Numbered from the stretch's first letter, positions 3,790 through 51,732 are shown. The stretch is 64,000 bases of DNA from an uncultured Verrucomicrobiota bacterium (GCA_903826865.1 CAIKGD010000012.1:2362-66361); one strand, 5' to 3'. The notes: generated by a model from the letters alone, not told the origin. Made by a program: numbers and translations.

Positions 3790-6700
3790 TCAACCAACCT
3801 TTTTAAGCGCTTTTTCGATGCTGGCGTTAAGGCGCGCGGCAAGCACTTGAACGGCGGGCTCGTGAAGCATTCCGCGGTGCTCGCCGGGAACCAGATAGAC
3901 ATCCTGATCGTCAGTCAGCACGGCCCATTCCATGGTCATATCCGGCAGGAACCAGCCGGCCAGTTCGTCGGAACGGAAAAGCGCGGTGCGTCCCGGATAA
4001 TAGCGGGGGTTATATTTGAGCGCGGCTTCACGGTTGCGTCGGTAAACTTCCTCTCGATTGGCCAGCACCCCTTCTTTAGCCTGCACGCCGTCGAGCATGG
4101 TAACGGCATCGGCGGCTTCGTCACGGAAGGAGTTTTTGAAACGATGCAAGATGATCTTTATCCACTGGCGGATACCGATGAGACGCGTAAGCTGGAACCG
4201 CCGCCAGTAGAAGCTGATCCGGCGTTCGGCGGGCGGATAAGCCCAGGCGTCAATCAACGCGAGCAGTTTGACTTCGCAGCCTTGATCCATCAGTTGGCGC
4301 GCCATTTCCATGGCGACATAGCCGCCATAGCACCAGCCGCCGAGCAGATAGGGTCCATCCGGCAGAAATTCGCGCAATACAGAAACGTAGTAAGCGGCCA
4401 TTTGCGGAATGGTGGAATGGACTTTGTCCGGATCAAGCAGTCCGAGGGACTGGAAACCGTACACCGGCTGATCCGGCGGCAGATTGTGCACGAGATTCGA
4501 GTAACCGAGCAGGTCGCCCGGAGCGCTGTGCAGGAGAAACAGCGGCACACGCCCCGGATTGCCTTCTTTGAGACAGACCAGCGATTTGTATTCGGACTCA
4601 CCGCGCAGACTGACCACTTCGACCATCTGCGCAATGGTGGGATACTGAAAGAGCTGTGCGACTGTCAGCGACAGCCCGCAGGCCAGAATCCGCTCGACCA
4701 GCTGTATGGCCAGCAGTGAATGACCGCCGAGATCAAAAAAGTTGTCGTGAATGCCGATTTGATTGATGCCGAGTACCGCCGACCAGATTTCCGCCAGCGT
4801 TTTCTGCTGCGGCGTTGAGGGCTCCACATAATTTTCGCGCGCCCGGACGGCGTTTTTAACCGGCGACGGCAGTGCCTTGCGGTCAACTTTTCCACCCGGT
4901 GCAACCGGAAATTCGTCAAGTTCCATAAAGGCAACCGGAATCATGTATTCCGGCAGACTGGCGGCAAGAAAGGCGCGCAGTTCACTGACAGACGGCGACA
5001 GACCCGGCACAGGAATATAATAGGCCGCCAGTTCTTTCTGCTCCGAAAGATCGTCGCGAGCGACCACAACAGCCTGCGCGATGTCGCTGTGCTGCTCCAG
5101 CACAGCGGCGATTCCGTCGGGTTCGATACGGAAACCGCGGATTTTCACCTGATTGTCCACACGTCCCATAAAGCCGATGCGTCCGTCGGACTGGCGGCAG
5201 ACTAGGTCGCCGGTACAGTAGAGCATCCCCTCGCCCCACGGATTACGGATAAATTTTTCACGGGTCAGATCTGACCGGTTGAGATAGCCGCGGGCAACAC
5301 CTTCGCCGCCGATCAGCAGTTCGCCGGGCATGCTGAGCGATACAAGCTGACGCCGCTCATCCGCCACATAGAGTGCCGTACCCGCAATCGGCAGACCGAT
5401 CGGCACTTCGCCGGTGACCGCGCCGGTCAGTTCGTGAACCGTGGCCACCACCGTGCATTCGGTCGGACCGTACGTATTGAAAAGCCGGACCGCTCCGCCG
5501 CCTTTCTGCAACCAGACGCGGCAGAGTTCCGCCGAAACTTTCTCGCCGCCGATGATAACCGCCCGCAGCGTTTTCGGCACGGTACGCAGATTGCGCACCC
5601 ATTCGTGCCAATAGGCGGTCGGCAGATCAACTGCCGTAATTTTCCGGCGCTCAACGAATTTTTCAAACTCGGATGTCGAACTGGAGATTTCGTCACTGCG
5701 CAGCACCACCGTGCCGCCGGAGGCCCAGGCCGGAAACAGCTCTTCAACCGAGCCGTCAAAATTCATCGAGAAAAACTGAAGAACACGGTCTTTGGCACTG
5801 ATACCGTAAATCTGAATCGAAGCCAGACAGTGATTCACCACATTGCGGTGTTCTACCATCACTCCTTTCGGTTTACCGGTGGAGCCGGAGGTGTAGAAAA
5901 TGTACGCCAGATTGGAGTTTTCACCGCAAACCGACGGTTTGGATGTACTGTCGGTGATCAGATCCACGCAAACGGCGGTGCGCCCGCCGTAAATCCGGTT
6001 GCTCAACGCCTCGACGGTGACAATAATCGGCATAGCCGTTTCACCCATGATAAATTCGAGACGGTCTGACGGATATTCGGGGTCAAGCGGCACATAGGCG
6101 CCGCCCGCCTTAAGAATACCCAGCATGCCGATGCACATTTCCAGAGAGCGGTTCACAAAAAGACCGACGGGTGTGCCGGGCTTGACTCCGAGTTCCTGCA
6201 ACCGTGCAGCCAGCGCATCGGCCCGCGCATCAAGTTCAGCGTAAGTCAGTTTCCCATCTATTCCTTCGACGGCCGTCGCGCGCGGCGTTTTTTCAGCCTG
6301 CGCCTCAAAAAGCTGATGGATGCAGCGGGTTTCACCGAAACCGGGTGTGCGCATCTGGAATTTCTCCAGCTCGCGGCGGTCATGAACCGTTAATACAGAT
6401 TGGGAAAAGAGCGGCTGACTGAGATAGGCCGTATGGCGGAAGGCGCGGAAATGCTCCCACACTTTGGCCGGACAGCGTATTTCGTTTTCGCCGAATACGA
6501 CGTGGTAAACCGGCGGCCTGTGCAGCGCAGGGAACCGCTGGAACAGGTCGCGCGCATAAGTTTTGCGCTTGCGGCAGATTTCGAGCGCCTTTTCAGCCTG
6601 CTGCATATTGTCAAAAAGGGACTGTTCGGCATTGAGCGCAACATGCAGAGGAACCTGATCGGCGAAAAACTCCGGTGCATCTGTTTTCGCTTTCCAGCCG

Positions 6701-9700
6701 ACAGTGAACTGATCCTGCGAGCAGAAGCGGGCCAGAAAACAGAGAAACAGCGGCAGGTCGGTGAGCGTATAGTGATGAATCGAACGGTCAATGCCGGCAG
6801 GAATTTCCAGCGGCTGGAAATTTTCGAAGCGGCGTACCCAGAAACGCTCATGGCCGGCCAGTCCGTCATTAATGGCTTCCAGTTTTTTACCGAGATTTGA
6901 AAATGCCGGTTCATTGACGATCCAGTCGGCGACCTCACCGACAGCGGAGAACCGGATATTCGACGGTTCGCCGTCCAGAGTGAACAGAGAGCCGTCGGAT
7001 TTGATTACATAGATGTCGCCGCCGAATAAAACCTTGGGCAGGCCTAGATCGTTGGGCTGATTACCGAAGTCGAGCGCGCGGCGCAAGGCATCGGTCTCGG
7101 TCTGCGGACGGTTCCAGTCAATAAGACCGCCGTAAGCGGGCCGTTTGTGAAGCGGATAATAGGTGCGCTTCCGCAAATCCTGCGGTGTGCGGACTTCGCG
7201 TCCTTCGACCAGTTCCAGCGCGAGTTCACTGAGAGCGTCAATGGCGGTATCGTAGCAACGGGCGTTAAGCGTAAACGAGGTGTCGTTTTCGTGCACATCC
7301 ACCGTGCGCTGTTTCAGCAGATCGCCCGCATCCACTTCGTCAACCATTACATGCCAGCTGACGCCGTGGAGCCTCTCGCGGTTGATGATCGCCCACGCGG
7401 TGGAATAAACCCCCGCGTAGCGCGGCAGCGGCGCGTCGTGGTAGTTGATCGCATAGCGGCGCGGCATGGCGAGCACGTCCGGCTTAAGGATATAGCTGTT
7501 GACGATGCTGAAGAGAAAATCAAACGGCTGTGCGGAAAGAATTTTTTCAAATCCGTCAGAGGGATGATGCCACGGAACGCCTTTTTCTTTCGCCCAGCGG
7601 CGGTTGGCAGGATCGGGTGAAATGAGGCCGAGCACCCGCATGCCGCGGCGGCGCAGAACTTCGGTGCAGCGCAGGCAGAGCGAGCCTTCGCCAATGACAA
7701 AACAGGTCGGCGCTTCTTGGTCGCCCGTCTGGAGGTACTCGCCAAGCGGACGGTACGGATCTTTGACTACCTGCCGCGCCAGCATCATAAAACCGGCCGT
7801 GATCCGCTCGGCGGTGGCGGCATCGAACAGTTCAGCGTCGTATTCCAGCTGCCCTTCAAGCTGCCCTTCGCGCTCAATGAAATAGAGCAGCATATCCATT
7901 TTCGACGTGTCGTTGCCGATTTCGTCGTCAGTCAGCGTGAGGCCGGCGAACTTTTTGGTCGGCAGCGGCATATTGTGGAGAATGAGCGAATTGCGGAATA
8001 CGGGATAGCGCGTCCCGCCGCTGACCGATTCCATGACTTTTTCAAAAGGAATGTCCTGATTTTCGTAGGCTTCCAGGGCGGTGCGGCGGACGCGCTCGAG
8101 TACGGCGGCAAAAGCCGGCGCGCCGGAAAAATCCGTGCGCAGGGCGAGCGCATTGATGAAGGTACCGATGACTTTTTCGACCTGCGGATGGTTGCGGTTG
8201 GCGATGGCGGTACCGGTGATGATGTCGGCCGAGCCGGTGGCGCGGTGCAGCAGCGTCTGCCAGATGGAGGCAAGCACCATAAACAGCGAGGCGCTTTCGC
8301 GGCGGCCCAGTGCGGTGAGCGCGGCCGTGAGATCAGGCGAAACGGTGAACGCGTGCCGCGCTCCGCGATGCGCGGAAACTTCGGGGCGACCGTGATCCAG
8401 CGGAAAGTGGAGGTCGGGGCGCGGCGCGGCCAGTTTTTCCTTCCAGTAATCGAGTTGCGGCTGCAGCGAACCGCTTTTGATGCGTTCGTCAATCCACACG
8501 GCGATATCGGAATACTGCCGTTCGACCGGCGGCTGCGGTAACGGACACCCGTCGAGAAAAGCCTCATAGATTTCTGCAAACTCCGTCGCAAAGCGGCTGA
8601 TGCCCCACCCGTCAGCAGCGATGTGATGAATGTTGAAGAAAAGATCAAAACGGTTTTCGGCCAGCTTGACCAGTTCGGCATTAATAAGAGGACCGGCGGA
8701 CAGATCAAAAATATGGCGTCCGTTCGCCAGCCGCATTTCGGCGGCCCGGCGGTCGCGCCCGGCGGCATCCATACCGCTCAGATCGGTGAGTTTGACGGGC
8801 ACAGAAACCTTATCAAGCGGCCGCTGTACCATTTCACCTTTTTCCATGGTGTAGACCATGCGCAGTGAATCGTGACGGCGGATGACCTCGTTAAACGCCG
8901 TCTCCAGCACGTCGACGTTCAGCGGACCGTTCAGATGAATCACTTCAGGGATGTTGGACAGAAGGCCTGAACGGTCCGACTGATGCAGCATCCACATGGT
9001 GCGCTGTGACGGTGTCAGCGGATAGAAAGAACGTCCGGCGGCGAGCGGGATCTCTTTGCTTACGGGGCCCGCCCGTCGAAGCAGATCAATCGAGGCAGCC
9101 AGTTTTCCGACGGTCGGATTTTCGTAGATATCCTTCAGCGGAATATCAACCCGGAGTTCCGTATTGATTTTCGACGCCAGCTGCGTGGCCAGCAGTGAGT
9201 GTCCGCCCAGCGCAAAGAAATGGTCGTTCAATCCAGCCGGTCCGGTTTTAAGCACGGCGGTGAACAGTTCCGCGACTGTCTTTTCAGTTGCCGAAACCGG
9301 CGGCTTGAACTCGGCCGCACGCACCTGTTCAAGATCGGCGGCGGCGGGCGGCGGCAGCGCTTTGCGGTCGGTTTTGCCGTTGGCCGTGAGCGGAATATGC
9401 GCAAGCCGGATGAAAAGCGACGGAACCATGTAAGGCGGCAGCTCGCGTCCAAGAGCCTGCCGTATTTTTTCAACCGTAAGAGTGCCGGATCCCTGCACTG
9501 TATAATAAGCGGCAAGGCGGCGGATGCCGGGGATATCCTCACGCACCACCACCGCCGATTCGCGCACACCATTGATCCGGCAAAGCGCCGATTCAATTTC
9601 GCCGGGTTCCACACGATAGCCGAGGAATTTAATCTGCTGATCCGTGCGTCCGGCAAACATCAGGTTGCCGTCGGGCAGACGCACGGCGCGGTCGCCGGTG

Positions 9701-10830
9701 CGGTAGAGCCGCCCGTGCGGTGTTTCAAGAAAGTGTTCCGCCGTCAGGCGGGAACAGTTGAGGTAACCGCGCGCCACTTGCACGCCGCCGATATAAATTT
9801 CGCCCTCTTCGCCATCAGCAACCGGCTCCATCCGGCTGTTGAACAGAAACAGTTCAACGCCGTTAAGCGCCTTGCCGATCGGCGTGTTGCGGCGCGGATC
9901 GCCGGAGCCGTCCACGCAATAGCAGGTGCAGTAAACCGCCGCCTCGGTCGGACCATAGCCGTTGATGATGCACAACTCAGGCACAGCATGGGCAATGTTC
10001 ATCAACCGCCGTTCAGGAACGGGTTCAACACCGGTCAGCAGACGGCGCAAACGGCTCTGTCCGGGGTGCTCGCGAACCCAGACTTCCAGATCAGCGATCA
10101 TAGACGGCGGAACGTAGGCCGAGGTAATTTTTTCCGCACAGAACCAGTCCGACAGTTTTGCCGCATCCAGACGGATATCATCCGGAACAATCACCAGCGC
10201 CGCGCCGCAAATGAGCGGCGCGAAAATTTCATACACCGAAACATCGAAACTTAAACCGGTCCACCAGCTGCATGCGTCTCCGGGACCGAGCGGGTGCCGG
10301 CTCTGTGCATCATCAAGCATATTGAGTGCGCCGCGGTGGTGGCAGAGAACCCCTTTCGGTTTTCCGGTGGAACCGGAGGTGTAAATGATATAGGCCAGAT
10401 CATCGGTTCCCGGCGGTTCCCAGTCAGCCGTAAACGGCAGGGTTTCGTCCGGTGCGACGACCACCGCGTTGGCGATGAAATGAGACCGGTGTGCCGCCGT
10501 GGTGACTGCAACCGGCGCGCCGCCGTCGGCCAGCATAAACAGAAGACGTTCCCGCGGATAGGATGGATCAAGAGCCAAATAAGCACTGCCGGCACGCAGA
10601 ACTGCCAGCAACGCAACAATCAAATCAGGTGAACGGTCCAGACAGACGGCAATCGGCACATCACGCCCCGCCCCGTGCGTGCGCAGCACGCGGGCAAGTT
10701 CCAGCGAACGGCGGTTCAGTTCGTCGTACGAAAGAACGGTTTCGCCGAACCGAACGGCGGCAAGATCAGGAGTTCGGGCAGCCTGCCCGATGAACCGGGC
10801 GATCAAGGTCTGGTCGTCATTTAAATTCAT
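3790..10830 (-). CDS. bimodular non-ribosomal peptide synthetase, 2346 aa: A-T-C-(Fmt-like)-(half C-like)-A-T-TE
   Basis: Two AMP-binding cores (YTSGSTGKPKG twice, NGYGPTE/NTYGPTE, GKxDRKAL twice), two GGHSL carrier motifs, HHIAADG condensation motif, N-x-H...D formyltransferase motifs, and a GWCYG thioesterase. Confidence 0.97.
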   Translation of the reverse strand: MNLNDDQTLIARFIGQAARTPDLAAVRFGETVLSYDELNRRSLELARVLRTHGAGRDVPIAVCLDRSPDLIVALLAVLRAGSAYLALDPSYPRERLLFMLADGGAPVAVTTAAHRSHFIANAVVVAPDETLPFTADWEPPGTDDLAYIIYTSGSTGKPKGVLCHHRGALNMLDDAQSRHPLGPGDACSWWTGLSFDVSVYEIFAPLICGAALVIVPDDIRLDAAKLSDWFCAEKITSAYVPPSMIADLEVWVREHPGQSRLRRLLTGVEPVPERRLMNIAHAVPELCIINGYGPTEAAVYCTCYCVDGSGDPRRNTPIGKALNGVELFLFNSRMEPVADGEEGEIYIGGVQVARGYLNCSRLTAEHFLETPHGRLYRTGDRAVRLPDGNLMFAGRTDQQIKFLGYRVEPGEIESALCRINGVRESAVVVREDIPGIRRLAAYYTVQGSGTLTVEKIRQALGRELPPYMVPSLFIRLAHIPLTANGKTDRKALPPPAAADLEQVRAAEFKPPVSATEKTVAELFTAVLKTGPAGLNDHFFALGGHSLLATQLASKINTELRVDIPLKDIYENPTVGKLAASIDLLRRAGPVSKEIPLAAGRSFYPLTPSQRTMWMLHQSDRSGLLSNIPEVIHLNGPLNVDVLETAFNEVIRRHDSLRMVYTMEKGEMVQRPLDKVSVPVKLTDLSGMDAAGRDRRAAEMRLANGRHIFDLSAGPLINAELVKLAENRFDLFFNIHHIAADGWGISRFATEFAEIYEAFLDGCPLPQPPVERQYSDIAVWIDERIKSGSLQPQLDYWKEKLAAPRPDLHFPLDHGRPEVSAHRGARHAFTVSPDLTAALTALGRRESASLFMVLASIWQTLLHRATGSADIITGTAIANRNHPQVEKVIGTFINALALRTDFSGAPAFAAVLERVRRTALEAYENQDIPFEKVMESVSGGTRYPVFRNSLILHNMPLPTKKFAGLTLTDDEIGNDTSKMDMLLYFIEREGQLEGQLEYDAELFDAATAERITAGFMMLARQVVKDPYRPLGEYLQTGDQEAPTCFVIGEGSLCLRCTEVLRRRGMRVLGLISPDPANRRWAKEKGVPWHHPSDGFEKILSAQPFDFLFSIVNSYILKPDVLAMPRRYAINYHDAPLPRYAGVYSTAWAIINRERLHGVSWHVMVDEVDAGDLLKQRTVDVHENDTSFTLNARCYDTAIDALSELALELVEGREVRTPQDLRKRTYYPLHKRPAYGGLIDWNRPQTETDALRRALDFGNQPNDLGLPKVLFGGDIYVIKSDGSLFTLDGEPSNIRFSAVGEVADWIVNEPAFSNLGKKLEAINDGLAGHERFWVRRFENFQPLEIPAGIDRSIHHYTLTDLPLFLCFLARFCSQDQFTVGWKAKTDAPEFFADQVPLHVALNAEQSLFDNMQQAEKALEICRKRKTYARDLFQRFPALHRPPVYHVVFGENEIRCPAKVWEHFRAFRHTAYLSQPLFSQSVLTVHDRRELEKFQMRTPGFGETRCIHQLFEAQAEKTPRATAVEGIDGKLTYAELDARADALAARLQELGVKPGTPVGLFVNRSLEMCIGMLGILKAGGAYVPLDPEYPSDRLEFIMGETAMPIIVTVEALSNRIYGGRTAVCVDLITDSTSKPSVCGENSNLAYIFYTSGSTGKPKGVMVEHRNVVNHCLASIQIYGISAKDRVLQFFSMNFDGSVEELFPAWASGGTVVLRSDEISSSTSEFEKFVERRKITAVDLPTAYWHEWVRNLRTVPKTLRAVIIGGEKVSAELCRVWLQKGGGAVRLFNTYGPTECTVVATVHELTGAVTGEVPIGLPIAGTALYVADERRQLVSLSMPGELLIGGEGVARGYLNRSDLTREKFIRNPWGEGMLYCTGDLVCRQSDGRIGFMGRVDNQVKIRGFRIEPDGIAAVLEQHSDIAQAVVVARDDLSEQKELAAYYIPVPGLSPSVSELRAFLAASLPEYMIPVAFMELDEFPVAPGGKVDRKALPSPVKNAVRARENYVEPSTPQQKTLAEIWSAVLGINQIGIHDNFFDLGGHSLLAIQLVERILACGLSLTVAQLFQYPTIAQMVEVVSLRGESEYKSLVCLKEGNPGRVPLFLLHSAPGDLLGYSNLVHNLPPDQPVYGFQSLGLLDPDKVHSTIPQMAAYYVSVLREFLPDGPYLLGGWCYGGYVAMEMARQLMDQGCEVKLLALIDAWAYPPAERRISFYWRRFQLTRLIGIRQWIKIILHRFKNSFRDEAADAVTMLDGVQAKEGVLANREEVYRRNREAALKYNPRYYPGRTALFRSDELAGWFLPDMTMEWAVLTDDQDVYLVPGEHRGMLHEPAVQVLAARLNASIEKALKKVG
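3793..4563 (-). other. NRPS thioesterase domain with Cys in the nucleophile position
   Basis: LFLLHSAPGD, GGWCYGG (TGC codon at 4330-4332, aa 2167), LIDAW, PGEHRGMLHEP. Confidence 0.8.
4597..4806 (-). other. NRPS carrier (T) domain 2 (approximate bounds)
   Basis: FFDLGGHSLLAIQL. The Ser codon is at 4717-4719 (aa 2038). Confidence 0.8.
4846..6393 (-). other. NRPS adenylation domain 2 (approximate bounds)
   Basis: LAYIFYTSGSTGKPKGV, FDGSVEE, NTYGPTE, YCTGD, PGGKVDRKAL. Confidence 0.8.
6394..6900 (-). other. condensation-domain C-terminal-lobe-like remnant with no HHxxxDG
   Basis: FWVRRFENFQPLEIP, FTVGW and FFADQVPLHVAL resemble late C-domain motifs. This is a by-eye assignment only. Confidence 0.4.
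6901..7704 (-). other. internal methionyl-tRNA-formyltransferase-like domain (N and C subdomains) inside the NRPS
   Basis: CFVIGEGS..., AINYHDAPLPRYAG (His codon 7438-7440, aa 1131), VDEVDAGDLL, then IDWNRPQTETDALRRALDFG resembling the Fmt C-terminal domain. Confidence 0.7.
7711..9024 (-). other. NRPS condensation domain (approximate bounds)
   Basis: LTPSQRTMW start and HHIAADGWG, with the first His codon at 8626-8628 (aa 735). Confidence 0.8.
9076..9288 (-). other. NRPS carrier (T) domain 1 (approximate bounds)
   Basis: FFALGGHSLLATQL. The Ser codon is at 9196-9198 (aa 545). Confidence 0.8.
9316..10830 (-). other. NRPS adenylation domain 1 (approximate bounds)
   Basis: LAYIIYTSGSTGKPKG, FDVSVYE, NGYGPTE, YRTGD, NGKTDRKAL. 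Confidence 0.8.
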
Positions 10831-10862: not shown

Positions 10863-11567
10863 ATGCTATATAAAGCGCCGGTTTTAATGAAGAATAATGT
10901 AGAAACTTTTAAAAAATCGATCGAGGTCTGGAATATCCGCCTGCCCGATCACCGCAACGACACCGCCCTCTGCCGCAGTCTATTGTCCGGCGAAGAGCTG
11001 GAGCGTGCCGCTAAATTCTTTAAACCGGCTGATGCCGAAGGCTTCATTCTCGGCCGAGGACTGCTGCGCCGGATTCTGGCAGACTGCCTGAATACCCGGC
11101 CGTCCTGGCTGGAATTCCGCCGTACCGCACTGGGTAAACCGTTTCTGGAAGAGAGCAATGGACTGGAGTTCAACGTGTCCCATTCGCGCGACCGCCTGCT
11201 GATTGCTGTCACCGCCGGACGGGCAGTCGGCGTGGATATTGAGTTCCGGCGCAGCGGATTGGCGATGGAATCCATCGCCAAACGGTGGTTTGCACCGGAG
11301 GAGCAGATGTTTTTCGGGGCCGCAGAAAATCCGGCAGACCGCTTTTTTGAAATCTGGGCGAAAAAGGAGGCCTATGTGAAGGCGCTGGGTGCCGGCATCT
11401 ATAAAGACCTCAATACTTTCGCAGTACCGCTCGGCGGTAAACCGTTTTCCCCGGCTGTCGGACAGGACGGACAGTGGTTTTTCCAAACATTAAAAATTGA
11501 TTCCGGCTATGCGGCGGCTGTAGTTTCCGAAGTGCCGCCGGTACCCGTTAACCTGCGGAAATTTTAG
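10863..11567 (+). CDS. Sfp-type 4'-phosphopantetheinyl transferase
   Basis: FNVSHSRDRLLIAVTAGRAVGVDIE and WAKKEAYVKALG motifs. Divergently oriented 32 nt from the NRPS start. An alternative start is ATG 10887. Confidence 0.9.
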   Translation: MLYKAPVLMKNNVETFKKSIEVWNIRLPDHRNDTALCRSLLSGEELERAAKFFKPADAEGFILGRGLLRRILADCLNTRPSWLEFRRTALGKPFLEESNGLEFNVSHSRDRLLIAVTAGRAVGVDIEFRRSGLAMESIAKRWFAPEEQMFFGAAENPADRFFEIWAKKEAYVKALGAGIYKDLNTFAVPLGGKPFSPAVGQDGQWFFQTLKIDSGYAAAVVSEVPPVPVNLRKF

Positions 11568-38745: not shown

Positions 38746-41700
38746 TTAATACAGAACAGCCGGACGGTAAAAGCGAACCGGCACGTTGGTCGCCGAGGTG
38801 TCCACCCAGACATTTGTTCCGTTTTGCGGATTCCGTGTAATGCTGTTGCTGGCGGTTAAAGTCCAGCCGCCGGTCACCAGATTGGTGCTGACATACATGC
38901 TCCACTTCGATGTGGATCCGTTGCCGGTTCCGTACCATGATACCGACAGACCGCTGCCGGATAATTTTATTCCGGTAAGGTGAAGAAGAGAGGCCGCATT
39001 AGTGGGGTCGGTGCCGGCCAGATACTCCTGCCAGGTCGTAAAACCGTCACCGTCCTGATCCTGCTGATCTGCAACCTCATAGCCGTCACCGGCCAGATTG
39101 TAAGAACTCAGCCACGACCGGGTCGTGCCGTGAGATGTCGAAAAAGGGCCCGGATTGGACGGCCGGGTCGAGGTAACTGCGGTCTGCTTCCGCAGCATGC
39201 GTCCGGTTTCATAAGCAAGCCGCAAATACCAGTCGCTGGGAAGGGTTGTGCCGTCCGCATTCAGCGTCAGCCAATAGCCCTGATCGGGCGCATCGGCTGC
39301 AGTCGGCGCGGTTTTATAAATAGCCGTGGCCTCGTCCACTTCATCAAACATCGCAATATAAAGCATGTTCGTCGCGTTCGCGGACAGGGCATTGTACGCC
39401 TGCCGCCAGAAAAAATCACCGGCGCGTCGTGGAATTTCATTTTTGGTTTTAACAACACCATCTCTGCTCATGAATAAATTATACCACGAAAAGCCGGGCC
39501 AGATGACCGGACAATAGGTGATCCCGGCGGAACTGGTGTTCGCCAGATCCGGGATTATCCTTTGCGTTTTCCAAGAATCCGCGCCGGAGTCGCTATTGTA
39601 ACGCCCGACCGTCCAGGGGCTCACCACATCAAATGCGTGGTAAACGCCGGTCCACCCTGAAGCTGTAAACGAATCTCCGGACAGGGTGCGCCACTCCCCC
39701 GGAACTCCGCCAAATACAGAAGCACGGTATTGTGCCGGCGCGCCGGTCTTAAACCAGTTGATCGCGTCAAGAGCCACCGCCGGGTCGGTCGGTCCATGCG
39801 GATCGGTCTTGAAACCGAATCCCCAGATACCGACCACCGGCTTGCCGTTGTGTTTAAGATAGCGGTCACTGGTGACAATTTCCGAGTCCACCAGCATCTG
39901 CCAGTCGTTGGTCATCACACTCCACCATGTGCTGGTTGATGCCATGCCCGAAACGTCGTACATCACCGCGAAAACCCGACCGTACTCTTCACACCCTGCC
40001 TTAAAGTTCTTCAGGGCGTTGAGCATGTGGTTCTTATAAGACGTATCGCTCCCGGCCTGCGTAACGACGAAACGCTGAACGAAAGCCCCGTCTATGCCGT
40101 ACTCCTGCATCCACCGCACATGGCGCCGGACAGTTTTATACAGGGTCCCGGAATAGAGCATGGCAGGCTGCCCGCCTTTGGTCATCGTGGTGGCGAACAG
40201 CTCGTCCGCGTCGTATTCAGAGATATCCGGATACATTTCAACCGTTAGGTTCGTGCTGGCAGGCGTCCCTCCATTCAAGGCCCAATGAATCCAGCGGGTA
40301 TCGGTTCCGTAATCGCCCGCAGCGGTAAACCAGGCCTGATAGCCGCACATGAGCTTGCCGTTCAGCGTGCTGGAATCCACCGGCGTGAGAGTCACAGCGC
40401 CTGGGTTGAAAACGGTGATTCTTGTCCAGTCTGCGCCGTTCAGGGTAACGTCTGTACAGCTGAAATATGAGGAATCTGCCGCATTGGTTCCGTTAATCTG
40501 TACCTTCCCGGCCGAGACAGCTTTAGCGAGGTTGGTGCGCTGATTGAACCCGGCCAGATACACGGTGCAACCGGGGCCGTTAAAATTGAAATTTTTAGCA
40601 GTGCTTAACCCTCCGGCAAAAACCACCCCGCTGTCGCTGAGATTCAGCGGCTGCGGCACCGCAGTGCTGAATTTGAGTGTACCGGAGCCTGCCACCGTTA
40701 TATTCGTGAAGACAGACGCAGTGCCGCCGAAAATCAACGTGCCCTCATTAACCGCCAGCCAGTTGTTTGTGCCGGTAACATTTTCCGTAACCATCATGGT
40801 GCCCGCACCTTGTTTGATTAAAACATTGGCGAGACATTCGGTGTTGGTTGCCTTCGTCATGGCCAGCACCCCGATTGTCAAATCATAGACGGCGGCGGGG
40901 CTGTCGCCGATGTCCATAATGTACGTGTCCGTGCCGGTCGTTTTATTGGGAGCCGTGCTCATGGGGGACATCGTGAACTTGGCTATGACGGCGCCGGAAC
41001 CGTTGTCCGTGCCGTCAAACACGAGAGTCTGCACGGGATCGGTCAAACCGTCCGGACGAAAATAGAGGCCGCCGGTATTTGTGATGTTGAGCGATCCCGT
41101 GATCAGAGTTTTCATCGTTTCGGTATCGGGGGAAAAAAAGTACAAATTGCCGGCCCCTGTAACGGAGGCTCCCGTATCTAACTTCCCGTATTTGGTGGTT
41201 ATCCCTTTGTCCAGTTGAAGCGTTCCGCCGTTTTGTACCGTGAGCAGACAGCCGGAAGGCAGCCCCAGATTGGCGTTGGTACCGCCGCTCAAGAGAGTGG
41301 CACCGTTTGCAACAATGATGTTCGTGGTGGCAGGCGCGGCGATTTTGACGTGAGCATATTCCAGTGTACCGGCTTTGATCAGCGTAGTTCCGGTGTAGCC
41401 GGAATTGGTGGTAAACGTCAACGTTCCCGGGCCGTCTTTAACCAGCCCTTCCGAGCCGAGCACTTTGACGTTGATTATTACGTTCGTGCCCGCGCCCAGC
41501 GCATTCACCGTGATCGCGGGGGTTCCGCCGGCGAGGGTCAGTGTACGGGTTGACGAAGAGCCGTAACCCAGAGTCCAGCCGGCTGCTGTATTGGTGTCGG
41601 TGTCGCCAAAGATGAGGTTGCCGACGGTCCATGCCGCAGAGAGTTGCACGGCCATATCGTTTGTAATGTTCACGGTGCTGAAGTCGGCCGTGTAAGTACT

Positions 41701-41862
41701 GCCGGTAGCGATGGTTCCGCCGGCCCAGTTGCCGGCTGTGCCCCAGTTCCAGTTCGTACCGCTGACGGAATTCGTCCAGGTGCCGTTCAGCGCCTGCGCT
41801 GCACCGCTCAACACCAGCATCGCCGACAGCACCGCCGCTGATTTTTTATTTGTCTTTCTCAT
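38746..41862 (-). CDS. 1038-aa secreted multidomain protein: autotransporter-associated beta-strand repeats, a glycoside-hydrolase-like central region, a Ca-binding DxDxDG motif and a C-terminal beta-sandwich
   Basis: Signal peptide MRKTNKKSAAVLSAMLVLSGAAQA. Repeats of the type GPGTLTFTTNSGYTGTTLIKAGTLEY. Central LMCGYQAWF...WIHW...EYGIDGAFVQRF. Then DQDGDGFTTWQEYLAGTDP. Confidence 0.85.
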   Translation of the reverse strand: MRKTNKKSAAVLSAMLVLSGAAQALNGTWTNSVSGTNWNWGTAGNWAGGTIATGSTYTADFSTVNITNDMAVQLSAAWTVGNLIFGDTDTNTAAGWTLGYGSSSTRTLTLAGGTPAITVNALGAGTNVIINVKVLGSEGLVKDGPGTLTFTTNSGYTGTTLIKAGTLEYAHVKIAAPATTNIIVANGATLLSGGTNANLGLPSGCLLTVQNGGTLQLDKGITTKYGKLDTGASVTGAGNLYFFSPDTETMKTLITGSLNITNTGGLYFRPDGLTDPVQTLVFDGTDNGSGAVIAKFTMSPMSTAPNKTTGTDTYIMDIGDSPAAVYDLTIGVLAMTKATNTECLANVLIKQGAGTMMVTENVTGTNNWLAVNEGTLIFGGTASVFTNITVAGSGTLKFSTAVPQPLNLSDSGVVFAGGLSTAKNFNFNGPGCTVYLAGFNQRTNLAKAVSAGKVQINGTNAADSSYFSCTDVTLNGADWTRITVFNPGAVTLTPVDSSTLNGKLMCGYQAWFTAAGDYGTDTRWIHWALNGGTPASTNLTVEMYPDISEYDADELFATTMTKGGQPAMLYSGTLYKTVRRHVRWMQEYGIDGAFVQRFVVTQAGSDTSYKNHMLNALKNFKAGCEEYGRVFAVMYDVSGMASTSTWWSVMTNDWQMLVDSEIVTSDRYLKHNGKPVVGIWGFGFKTDPHGPTDPAVALDAINWFKTGAPAQYRASVFGGVPGEWRTLSGDSFTASGWTGVYHAFDVVSPWTVGRYNSDSGADSWKTQRIIPDLANTSSAGITYCPVIWPGFSWYNLFMSRDGVVKTKNEIPRRAGDFFWRQAYNALSANATNMLYIAMFDEVDEATAIYKTAPTAADAPDQGYWLTLNADGTTLPSDWYLRLAYETGRMLRKQTAVTSTRPSNPGPFSTSHGTTRSWLSSYNLAGDGYEVADQQDQDGDGFTTWQEYLAGTDPTNAASLLHLTGIKLSGSGLSVSWYGTGNGSTSKWSMYVSTNLVTGGWTLTASNSITRNPQNGTNVWVDTSATNVPVRFYRPAVLY

Positions 41863-42203: not shown

Positions 42204-42280
<77 letters not shown>

Positions 42281-49650: not shown

Positions 49651-51732
49651 CTATTTCATTACATCCAGCAGGTTGCTGTAATCATCCATCCAGGGGCGGA
49701 CATCGCGAACCGCCCGCGCTTTGAGTGAATCCGCCCGGGCAATCGCCGGCTGCTGCAGGAAATCCGGATCACGGCTGAGCAAAACCCATTGGGCATTCGC
49801 GCTGATTTTCATATCGCCGGGGGTGTCAATATAGGCCGCATACAGGTTGAAATGGTTGCGCACCTGCACCAGCACCGGGAGTAAATCGAGATTCCGGTTC
49901 GAAATATGGGCCGCAATAACACCGCCTTCCGCCAGATGCCGGAGATAGAGTTCAAAGGCTTCCAAAGTGAGCGTTTGAACCGGTATCCGGTCACCGCTGA
50001 AGGCGTCCAGCACCAGTACATCAAACCGGTTGGCGGATTCCTGCTCCAGCGAGATCCGCCCGTCGCCGGAGACAATCTCTATTTTTGCCTTGGAATCACG
50101 CAGATACGAAAACCACGGACTGTTTCGCGCCAGCTGAATAACCGCCGGGTCAATTTCGTAGAAGCGGAAAACATCCCCCGCACAACCATGGGCGGAAAGC
50201 ACGCCGATGCCCATACCCAGCAATCCGACGCGCATGGGCCGGCCCGCCAGCCGTTTCGGATGGTTCAGGATGGCCAGTCCGCCGCCGCCTTTTTCCGTGT
50301 AGTAGGTGGTGGTTCTGTTAATAAATTTCGGATGATGTATCTGCATGCCGTGGTTGATTCTCCCGTGCAGCAGACTGTAGATCGGAATACCTTTGTTGCT
50401 TTCAAACGCGACCCGCACACAGCCGAAAAAATTGCGCTCCATATACACCGAGCTGCGTATTTCTTTCATAACGCCCGCACCGAGAAATACAGCGAACGCC
50501 GCCAGAAGCACCGGAAAAACATGGCGGACGGGCCGGAAAGTTTTCCGGGTCTCCGTATCGGTATAGATCAAAAAGACCGCCAGCGCCCCGGACAGGATGA
50601 GCATCAACTGATATTCCCAATAGCCCTTAAAGAGAAACGGAGCCGCCAGCACGGTAAACAGCCCGCCCAGCGCCCCGCCCAGTGAGATGCAGAGATAAAA
50701 GCCGGTCAGATATTCCGGATCGGGTTTTGTCCGGTAGAGCGCATTGTGGCAAAAGAGACAGACCGCCAGCAGGATAAAGCTGTAGGCCGCAATCTGCCGC
50801 CGGATTTCAATTTCCAGCCCCTGCTGCGACAGATACCCGGCCGCCGCGAATGCGCAGATCAGCAGAAAAATGTAACGGCTCTGCCAATTTTTCAGTTTAT
50901 CCATAAACCCGATGATGTAACTCAGCAGGTAAATGGATAACGGCAGTATCCAAAGGAACGGCACAGGAGGAATGTCCTGCGTCATCTGATTGGTAATCGC
51001 CATCAGCGCCAGAACCCCGCAGAACGAAAACAGCGTCCATAGAAACAGCCGGCATCCGGAGTACGGAAGAGACGGCGCAACCGGCGCCGGTGCGGGAGTG
51101 CACGGGCCGGGAGAGTTCCGGACTTTGACGGCGCACCCGGCACACAGAAGCACATAAGCCAGAAAGCCGCCGCTCCATATCCATGCCTGCTGATGGAGTG
51201 TCAGATGCGGCTCAATAAAAAACGGATAGCTCAACAAGGCCAGCAAGGAGGCGGTATTGGAAACTGCGTAGAAAATATAGGGGGACCGTTCCGGTTTCAG
51301 CCGGTGGAACCAGGCCTGCAGAAGTGAAGCACCGGTGGACAGAAGAAAGTACGGAAGCCCGATGCTGACCAGCAGAAGCCGCAGAATGTGCATGGTTGGA
51401 TATTCTGCGCCGCCGGGCCGCCAGGACGGATCCGGAAGAACCGGCGATCCCCATGCAAAAATCAGCAGACTCCCGGTTAGCAGTGCCGCAAGGAGCAGTC
51501 CGGTATGCAAAACAACCTGCCGGCCGGGCCGCAGCCGTTGCAGGAGGTGGGCATAGGTATAACCGCCGAGCAGCAGAAACTGGAAGAACATCAGACAGGT
51601 CAGCCAGACGGCCGGCACGCCGCCGAACCAGGGCAGGAAATATTTTCCAATGACCGGTTGTATCTGGAAAAGGAGAAATGCGCCGAGAAACACGGTGGAA
51701 GGAAACAGGCCGCGGAATTTCAGCATTTTCAT
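49651..51732 (-). CDS. fused polytopic-membrane / spermidine-synthase-like protein
   Basis: About 430 aa of TM helices are followed by a class I methyltransferase/spermidine-synthase-like domain (RVGLLGMGIGV..., DVLVLDAFSGD). Confidence 0.8.
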   Translation of the reverse strand: MKMLKFRGLFPSTVFLGAFLLFQIQPVIGKYFLPWFGGVPAVWLTCLMFFQFLLLGGYTYAHLLQRLRPGRQVVLHTGLLLAALLTGSLLIFAWGSPVLPDPSWRPGGAEYPTMHILRLLLVSIGLPYFLLSTGASLLQAWFHRLKPERSPYIFYAVSNTASLLALLSYPFFIEPHLTLHQQAWIWSGGFLAYVLLCAGCAVKVRNSPGPCTPAPAPVAPSLPYSGCRLFLWTLFSFCGVLALMAITNQMTQDIPPVPFLWILPLSIYLLSYIIGFMDKLKNWQSRYIFLLICAFAAAGYLSQQGLEIEIRRQIAAYSFILLAVCLFCHNALYRTKPDPEYLTGFYLCISLGGALGGLFTVLAAPFLFKGYWEYQLMLILSGALAVFLIYTDTETRKTFRPVRHVFPVLLAAFAVFLGAGVMKEIRSSVYMERNFFGCVRVAFESNKGIPIYSLLHGRINHGMQIHHPKFINRTTTYYTEKGGGGLAILNHPKRLAGRPMRVGLLGMGIGVLSAHGCAGDVFRFYEIDPAVIQLARNSPWFSYLRDSKAKIEIVSGDGRISLEQESANRFDVLVLDAFSGDRIPVQTLTLEAFELYLRHLAEGGVIAAHISNRNLDLLPVLVQVRNHFNLYAAYIDTPGDMKISANAQWVLLSRDPDFLQQPAIARADSLKARAVRDVRPWMDDYSNLLDVMK

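Follow-up and report, generated by a model that had tools for sequence, protein, structure and literature searches.

Why should a nonribosomal peptide synthetase (NRPS) carry a formyltransferase (F) domain in its interior, behind an intact condensation (C) domain? NRPS F domains are described in two reviews as always lying in initiation modules (PMC8949500, PMC10510592); according to the second they "exist on the N-terminus" because formylation blocks the amine, which can then not be extended. The question is raised by a gene for a 2346-residue NRPS in a 64,000-nucleotide stretch of DNA from an uncultured Verrucomicrobiota bacterium (GCA_903826865.1 CAIKGD010000012.1:2362-66361), the whole of which is called the window here. 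Our analysis confirmed that an F block is present inside the second module and had been correctly read in a first-pass annotation made from the sequence alone. We give about an even chance to the proposal that the protein is an intact dimodular NRPS whose second module has two acyl-transfer catalysts, both acting on the amino acid held by its carrier (T) domain. That the F domain and the half C domain behind it constitute a second catalyst beside the normal C domain of an elongation module, giving a doubly N-acylated lysine, is put forward more tentatively, as somewhat short of an even chance. In window coordinates and in order along the protein the synthetase comprises:

3790-10830, minus strand: whole NRPS gene, 2346 aa, A1-T1-C-F-FmtC(reduced)-halfC-A2-T2-TE, where A is adenylation and TE thioesterase (open reading frame (ORF) list, translation, Pfam)
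9355-10815, minus strand: A1 adenylation domain, aa ~6-492, code DVYYLGGVYK (Pfam, NCBIfam, code by alignment)
9076-9279, minus strand: T1 carrier domain, aa ~518-585 (Pfam), with GGHSL at aa 542-546 and the Ser545 codon at 9196-9198
7714-9030, minus strand: full condensation domain, aa 601-1039 (PF00668, E 3e-91, profile positions 3-451 of 456), with HHIAADG
7111-7704, minus strand: formyltransferase catalytic domain, aa 1043-1240 (PF00551, NCBIfam, PDB sequence matches, AlphaFold2 (AF2) and Foldseek)
6931-7110, minus strand: reduced Fmt C-terminal (OB-like) subdomain, aa ~1241-1300 (homologues match PF02911 at the equivalent position)
6331-6930, minus strand: vestigial condensation C-terminal lobe, aa ~1301-1500 (Pfam in homologues, hhalign, Foldseek)
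4861-6309, minus strand: A2 adenylation domain, aa 1508-1990, lysine-like code DGEDIGTVVK (code by alignment)
4615-4800, minus strand: T2 carrier domain, aa 2011-2072, Ser2037 (Pfam)
3847-4545, minus strand: thioesterase domain, aa 2096-2328 (PF00975), nucleophile motif GWCYG at aa 2165-2169, Cys2167 at 4330-4332

In Pfam terms the protein has two AMP-binding and two PP-binding domains together with Condensation, Formyl_trans_N and Thioesterase. None of the NCBIfam equivalogs matched the NRPS, the best scores being far under the cut-offs. The A3 motif YTSGSTGKPKG is found twice, at aa 150 and aa 1646, and NGKTDRKAL lies at aa 484-492. Nearly all of the motifs quoted in the first-pass annotation were recovered on the translation where it had placed them; HHIAADG is indeed present, though it spans 8608-8628 (aa 735-741) and the 8611-8628 given for it is one codon short. 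The domain reading itself, an Fmt-like F domain after an intact C domain, followed by the C-terminal lobe only of another C domain and then by A2-T2-TE, is supported by hidden Markov models (HMMs), structure prediction and fold search.

The insert that separates the C domain from A2 covers aa ~1040-1510. It had been proposed that its first part, aa ~1043-1310, was a formyltransferase, and a Pfam scan gives a significant match there, to Formyl_trans_N (PF00551) at aa 1113-1200, where an E value of 6.8e-15 and 55.7 bits (cut-off 26.1) lie well outside anything that chance would give. The nearest NCBIfam models to the insert were PRK06988 (E 1e-27) and ArnA (E 5e-24), both below their equivalog cut-offs, as well as Fmt, and the best sequence matches in the PDB were WbkC, ArnA, FDH and Fmt with E values of 1e-15 to 1e-11. 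CFVIGEGS forms aa 1043-1050 (7681-7704), AINYHDAPLPRYAG aa 1127-1140, VDEVDAGD aa 1163-1170 and IDWNRPQTETDALRRALDFG aa 1237-1256. Alignment with WbkC pairs AINYHDAPLPRYAG with SVNLHPSLLPAYRG and VDAGD with ADTG, from which the catalytic triad is assigned as Asn1129 (7444-7446), His1131 (7438-7440), which lies within AINYHDAPLPRYAG, and Asp1167 (7330-7332). Among 50 homologues the asparagine and histidine are invariant and the aspartate is at least 90% conserved. The AF2 model of the block, built with 50 homologues, has a mean predicted local distance difference test score (pLDDT) of 92.2 and a predicted template-modelling (TM) score of 0.87. Searched with Foldseek, it adopts a formyltransferase fold like those of WbkC (E 6e-19, TM-score on the target 0.84), Fmt and ArnA (both with a TM-score of ~0.70), and the FDH hydrolase domain was also among the top matches.

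The block had been called a complete Fmt-type formyltransferase. This holds for the N-terminal catalytic domain, which is whole, but not for the C-terminal domain, which is reduced: no match to Formyl_trans_C (PF02911) was obtained in the protein even at E<=10, ~35 aa of the C-terminal barrel are deleted relative to homologues and four short strands are left in the AF2 model.

Behind this lies a stretch containing FWVRRFENFQPLEIP (aa 1330-1344) and FFADQVPLHVAL (aa 1388-1399), which had been described as only the C-terminal lobe of a condensation domain, with no HHxxxDG. The description is borne out by Pfam matches of homologues, by Foldseek and by the motif, since neither HHxxxDG nor an N-lobe is present in aa ~1301-1500. 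The equivalent stretch of homologues matches PF00668 at profile positions 191-456 only (P0002, 1.3e-10; P0062, 2.5e-11; P0063, 6.7e-10; P-numbered relatives are protein cluster representatives and L-numbered ones genome loci, of which there were 80). A separate model of aa ~1300-1500 had a pLDDT of 74.6 and its top Foldseek matches were all NRPS C domains, headed by the starter C domain of RzmA (E 2.7e-6) and followed by LgrA, EntF, McyB and Txo1. When the half-C profile was aligned by hhalign to the protein's own C domain it fell in register with residues 187-430, but the match was weak (E 0.006) and the assignment therefore relies on the Pfam matches of homologues and on Foldseek. Compared with homologues the lobe is trimmed by 24 and ~45 aa (~70 residues). 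Presumably it still touches the A domain as a full C domain normally does, an idea that comes from the C-A platform concept (PMC10510592).

The GGxS motif of T1 is kept among the relatives and HHxxxDG of the C domain is conserved clade-wide at 32-38% identity. The code of A1, DVYYLGGVYK, which we take to be nearest to aliphatic codes, is conserved in P0058, P0080, P0084, P0089 and P0137, and in relatives takes the form DVYYLGG[V/I]CK; no match to it was found in the published code compilation that was searched. A2-T2 scores well against the MxcG model of NCBIfam. The nucleophile of the TE, by motif comparison, is cysteine here and in P0058 and P0130, and serine in P0080, P0084 and P0089. In a few NRPSs cysteine thioesterases go together with unusual release chemistry or with strained rings.

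How unusual is the F and half-C insert? An exhaustive phmmer search with the insert against 1.84 billion cluster representatives returned 1,341 proteins at E<1e-30, the great majority of which have an F domain from about residue 8, followed by Fmt-C, half-C, A and T domains. By sequence comparison, then, F plus half-C is how a very large family of initiation modules normally begins, and the notion that the half-C piece is an oddity of this one protein must be rejected, F, Fmt-C and half-C being the usual set of the family. The A codes of the N-terminal F relatives are varied (Asn, Cys, Gly, Gln, Thr, Ser, Tyr, Pro and others), and this variety behind a conserved F-halfC-A-T unit fits an F domain that serves the T domain of its own module. 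The folate-loop motif of the window protein, HDAPLPRYAG, departs from the consensus HxSLLPxxRG, with Ala in place of Arg, and had been taken as a hint that the donor or the chemistry may differ. The motif is no evidence for this: all of the family shows N-Y/F-H-D-(A/G/S)-P-L-P-x-Y-A-G without variation, and because the deviation is a family trait it is no sign of unusual chemistry. The same NYHD.PLP.YAG-type motif was also the pattern used to search for genome loci. The anabaenopeptilide and kolossin initiation modules named in PMC8949500 are probably members, and a Photorhabdus protein of the family, P0030, may be the kolossin module of that list. The Dolichospermum locus L066 was considered as an ApdA-type anabaenopeptilide locus but is not one.

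Several other arrangements were seen in the family. L066 (9989-14683) and ~35 other loci encode single-module proteins of ~1560-1590 aa with F, half-C, A and T domains, in which the A domain is interrupted by a luciferase-like monooxygenase (PF00296). They are spread over Anaerolineae, Myxococcota, Gemmatimonadota, Ignavibacteria, Acidobacteriota, cyanobacteria and others, and we know of no product for them. L024, L038, L040, L043, L046 and L067 encode single-module F-halfC-A-T-TE proteins with codes that are Asn-like (DLTKVGEVGK) or Ala/Gly-like (DLFNNALTYK), and these could release free N-formyl amino acids. P0064 and L012 (~1625 aa) have an N-terminal F-halfC-A(DAEDIGTVVK)-T and a C-terminal extension of ~430 aa with no Pfam match. 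In P0126 (1172 aa) F plus half-C comes immediately after a TE-like domain (residues 24-290), and P0190 (1549 aa) has ~340 unassigned residues before F and a full C domain after a short stretch resembling the C-terminal part of an A domain and a T domain; these two may be gene-call fusions or real variants.

While the domain type is known and the family very common, the position in the window protein contradicts the rule given in the reviews. F begins at aa 1043, after A1-T1-C and not at the N-terminus, with the order F-halfC-A2-T2 as in more than 1,300 family representatives. The first-pass annotation could match no described system to an F domain placed after an intact C domain, and neither could we. 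Literature searches for an F domain after a C domain or in an elongation module returned only N-terminal examples or stand-alone enzymes, with no C-F-A synthetase among them.

The architecture is, on the other hand, not a one-off: several phyla have it, and it is set among modules in several different ways. The unit follows a full C domain in ~10 of the top 150 relatives and in 8 of the 80 genome loci, and its carriers are mostly Kiritimatiellota, Verrucomicrobiota and Lentisphaerota. At 64 of the 80 loci the open frame upstream of F is of 150 codons or fewer. More than 1,000 aa are open upstream of it in L001, L003, L007, L019 and L057; contig ends truncate L002 and L028. The nearest matches came from a Pontiellaceae metagenome-assembled genome (MAG; 86%), from Verrucomicrobiota MAGs (77% and 64%), from Lentisphaerota/Victivallales MAGs and from a single 'Desulfobacterium' MAG, which would make Kiritimatiellota or a relative the probable source of the window. 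The layout A-T-C-F-..-A-T-TE is shared by P0058 (71% identical, also 2346 aa), P0080, P0084, P0089 and P0130, and by P0137, which has a Gly module in addition. Elsewhere the contexts differ: P0168 reads C-F-halfC-A-T-C-A(Pro)-T-TE, P0117 C-F-halfC..., P0185 C-A-T-C-F-halfC..., L065 C-F-halfC-A-T-TE and P0148 F-halfC-C-A-T. The C domains beside F in P0168, P0185 and P0117 are 27-35% identical to that of the window protein, no closer than ordinary C domains, and the C domains involved are likewise not closer to one another than to ordinary ones. The differing contexts and the lack of special kinship among these C domains suggest that the C-plus-F arrangement arose more than once. In a neighbour-joining tree of F domains the internal-F proteins did not come out as one clean clade. 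That stand-alone F-halfC-A-T-TE proteins exist suggests an origin by fusion of such a module behind an A-T-C.

A feature common to these modules lies in the A domain. In all C-plus-F modules examined the specificity code, extracted by alignment, has Glu239 and Asp, Asn or Ser278 and is basic and Lys-like. The code DGEDIGTV(V/I)K is found in the window protein and in P0058, P0080, P0084, P0089, P0137, L001, L002, L003 and L007; P0130 has DLEDVGSVIK, P0168 DAESVGTIAK and P0148 DAEDIGTVVK, and L019, L028, L057 and L065 have DIEDAGTVIK, DIENVGTVIK, DIEDVGTIIK and DTEDIGSVAK, respectively. Among the representatives basic codes occur in 8 of 8 C-plus-F modules as against 9 of 93 N-terminal F modules (Fisher p 1e-7), and among the genome loci in 8 of 8 as against 2 of 19 (Fisher p 2e-5), counts that are not phylogenetically independent. 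DGEDHGTV(VK) is the Lys code of pyoverdine synthetases and has been matched to that of BacB-M1-Lys, DAESIGSV (PMC3207962). A compilation lists DGEDHGTVVK under Lys and gives an Arg consensus with Ala322 and Thr or Asp331 (PMC12283262), residues that the C-plus-F codes do not have. DGEDIGTVVK agrees with the Lys code DGEDHGTVVK at 9 of 10 positions and with the Arg consensus at 7 of 10, though a 90%-identical Orn code also exists (PMC12283262). Literature searches on DGEDIGTVVK, DAEDIGTVVK and fragments of them gave no match, the only related code found being DGEDHGTV. From its code, A2 appears to load lysine.

Both acyl-transfer domains seem to have been kept in working order. In the dimodular relatives, which are 32-48% identical per domain, HHxxxDG, N-Y-H-D, D-x-G-D, both GGxS motifs and the TE nucleophile are all retained. 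Identity among relatives is 43-45% for F, which is similar to that of the A domains, 32-38% for C, 26-38% for TE and only 23-28% for half-C, the worst conserved. That the catalytic motifs are kept and that F is among the best-conserved regions argues that it is not dead, and on the evidence of this conservation both catalysts, C and F, are under selection.

It would seem possible to account for these observations as follows. A1 would load an amino acid, probably aliphatic, on T1 and A2 would load lysine, or another basic diamino acid, on T2. F would move a formyl group from N10-formyl-tetrahydrofolate to one amine of Lys-S-T2, the full C domain would join residue 1 from T1 to the other amine, and the TE, with its cysteine nucleophile, would release an N-formylated X-Lys dipeptide. 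The formyl donor, the action of F on T2 rather than T1, and the product are all inferred. F most likely serves T2 because F-halfC-A-T is a conserved working unit, and the conflict between formylation and extension would be removed because lysine has two amines. Two alternatives are predicted, namely N-alpha-formylation with an N-epsilon isopeptide bond, or N-epsilon-formylation with a normal peptide bond. No residues set the internal F domains apart from N-terminal ones, to which they are ~50% identical, and this leans the balance slightly, if weakly, towards unchanged chemistry on the alpha-amine and hence towards an N-epsilon isopeptide bond made by C.

A different possibility is that F caps the N-terminus and gives formyl-X-Lys. 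It would formylate residue 1 on its alpha-amine, whether on T1 ahead of condensation, as an F domain of initiation type that happens to lie downstream of C, or on dipeptidyl-S-T2 after condensation. All characterised NRPS F domains formylate the N-terminal alpha-amine (PMC10510592, PMC8949500), and the internal F domains have no group-specific residues and ~50% identity to N-terminal F domains of many specificities. Capping would, however, leave the Lys-like code in every C-plus-F module unexplained. P0117, P0168 and L065 start with a C domain, so that F would have to reach the upstream T domain in trans; P0148 has F on the N-terminal side of the C domain of the same module; and the conserved F-halfC-A-T unit means that F works with its own module's T. 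We consider capping unlikely, though an alternative to be taken seriously. It is improbable that F is a silent relic of fusion, acting only as spacer or scaffold after an F-halfC-A-T-TE synthetase was joined behind A-T-C. Stand-alone proteins of just this kind exist (the six single-module F-halfC-A-T-TE loci above) and ~110 aa have been lost from the Fmt C-subdomain and half-C lobe of the window protein, but members as distant as ~43% identity all keep the Asn/His/Asp triad and NYHD.PLP.YAG, conservation is higher in F than in C, T or TE, and the AF2 model is a well-packed formyltransferase fold.

F might also carry out some other chemistry, making an N-formyl-N-hydroxy-lysine hydroxamate, S-formylating the phosphopantetheine thiol to provide a formyl starter, or hydrolysing 10-formyl-tetrahydrofolate. 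Each has some precedent: stand-alone formyltransferases make formyl-hydroxyornithine in pyoverdine-type pathways (PMC8949500), the Fmt-like LctF formylates the thiol of CoA (PMC11730586), the FDH hydrolase domain ranks high among the structural matches, and some N-terminal relatives have hydroxy-Orn-like codes such as DVENVGAITK. Yet the surroundings of the NRPS, in the window and in relatives alike, contain neither an N-hydroxylase nor any other tailoring gene, and a hydroxamate siderophore was set aside as a product for want of a nearby N-hydroxylase. The closest genomes, the Pontiellaceae, Verrucomicrobiota and Lentisphaerota MAGs, are many of them presumably from anaerobes, and as both T domains have their own A domain a formyl starter would be without an obvious carrier. 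Such chemistry has, in our view, a slim chance of being correct. 'N-formyl-lysine' in Norine/rBAN was looked at as a precedent but arises artefactually from the ureido CO of anabaenopeptin-type peptides.

Several points weigh against the proposal that F and C share the two amines of a T2-bound lysine. Most of the C-plus-F examples are orthologues of one dimodular synthetase, which bears directly on the co-occurrence counts. Stachelhaus codes are predictions, and an Arg assignment would remove the second acylatable amine. There are no residues that distinguish internal from N-terminal F domains, and so no sign of adaptation to a side-chain amine. The Fmt C-subdomain and half-C lobe, together ~110 aa shorter than in homologues, could mark decay in the subclade of the window protein, and the neighbouring genes, being conserved in close relatives only, give no functional clue.

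Whatever the amine, the positional rule of the reviews is broken by this synthetase and its relatives with both catalysts intact, and the strict pairing with a lysine-type A domain offers a simple, testable reason for an internal F. If sharing of the lysine by F and C proves true, nonribosomal synthesis would gain its first case of in-cis formylation away from the N-terminus, and a small formyl-dipeptide would be conserved in Kiritimatiellota, Verrucomicrobiota and Lentisphaerota, poorly studied bacteria of the Planctomycetes-Verrucomicrobia-Chlamydiae (PVC) group. For NRPS engineering, it would add an in-line tailoring step, formylation of a second amine in an elongation module, and the common F plus half-C unit would be movable as a cassette.

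The genes flanking the NRPS run in the order transketolase, HK, DD-carboxypeptidase, NRPS, phosphopantetheinyl transferase (PPTase), GT2 and GT4, and its immediate neighbours are:

10863-11567, plus strand: Sfp-type phosphopantetheinyl transferase, divergent from the NRPS (Pfam ACPS and AASDHPPT_N), position kept in L003
2637-3902, minus strand: S11 D-Ala-D-Ala carboxypeptidase, directly downstream of the NRPS and co-directional, its ORF overlapping the NRPS stop codon

The pairing of NRPS and DD-carboxypeptidase is kept in L003 (13783-14799) but not in more distant relatives, and the gene order as a whole is kept only in close relatives (L003) and not in L057, L007, the Lentisphaerota or the 'Desulfobacterium' MAG. 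Because the order is lost beyond close relatives the neighbours are best seen as general synteny rather than a gene cluster, with the NRPS and the PPTase as the functional unit. Elsewhere in the window genes for a sulfatase, LptF/G, PriA and G6PD point to an ordinary chromosomal setting. An ORF of 693 aa (49651-51732, minus strand) has no Pfam match at E<=1e-5, and one of 1038 aa (38746-41862, minus strand) has a PATR autotransporter-type repeat as its sole Pfam match. The only RNA gene found in the window was a tRNA-Met (CAT) at 42204-42280 on the minus strand.

Among known systems the obvious comparison is with LgrA, the linear gramicidin synthetase (F-A-T; PDB 5ES5 to 5ES9 and 6MFZ), which also has a domain of formyltransferase fold in cis to A-T. 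There F occupies the place of a C domain relative to the A domain and acts on the T-bound amino acid (PMC10510592). The F domain of LgrA, however, is of ~190 aa, is at the extreme N-terminus and has neither the OB-like subdomain nor the C-lobe remnant, and its similarity to the window F is weak (E 4e-6 over ~105 aa), below that of the sugar formyltransferases. The long N-terminal NRPS F domains are much closer, having the same unit and NYHD.PLP.YAG motif, F domains that are 40-50% identical and A-T directly after; theirs start the protein and precede varied A domains, whereas the window unit is internal after A-T-C, is followed by a Lys-like A domain and is partly trimmed. WbkC, the N-domain of ArnA, Fmt and the hydrolase domain of FDH share the Asn/His/Asp triad and a Rossmann-like N-domain followed by a C-terminal subdomain. 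Their substrates are nucleotide-sugars, Met-tRNA or water, they occur on their own or joined to unrelated domains, and they have the motif HxSLLPxxRG where the window protein has HDAPLPRYAG.

For the chemistry, PvdF sets a precedent in that a basic residue of NRPS products is formylated on an amine other than the alpha-amine (PMC8949500). Enzymes of the PvdF type differ in being separate proteins that act on free N-hydroxy-ornithine. CchA and Rft are, like PvdF, associated with in-trans formylation of side chains in siderophore pathways. For two acylations of one residue the precedent is MxcG, of myxochelin synthesis, which lacks an F domain and uses one C domain for both reactions, yet acylates a carrier-bound lysine on both of its amines.

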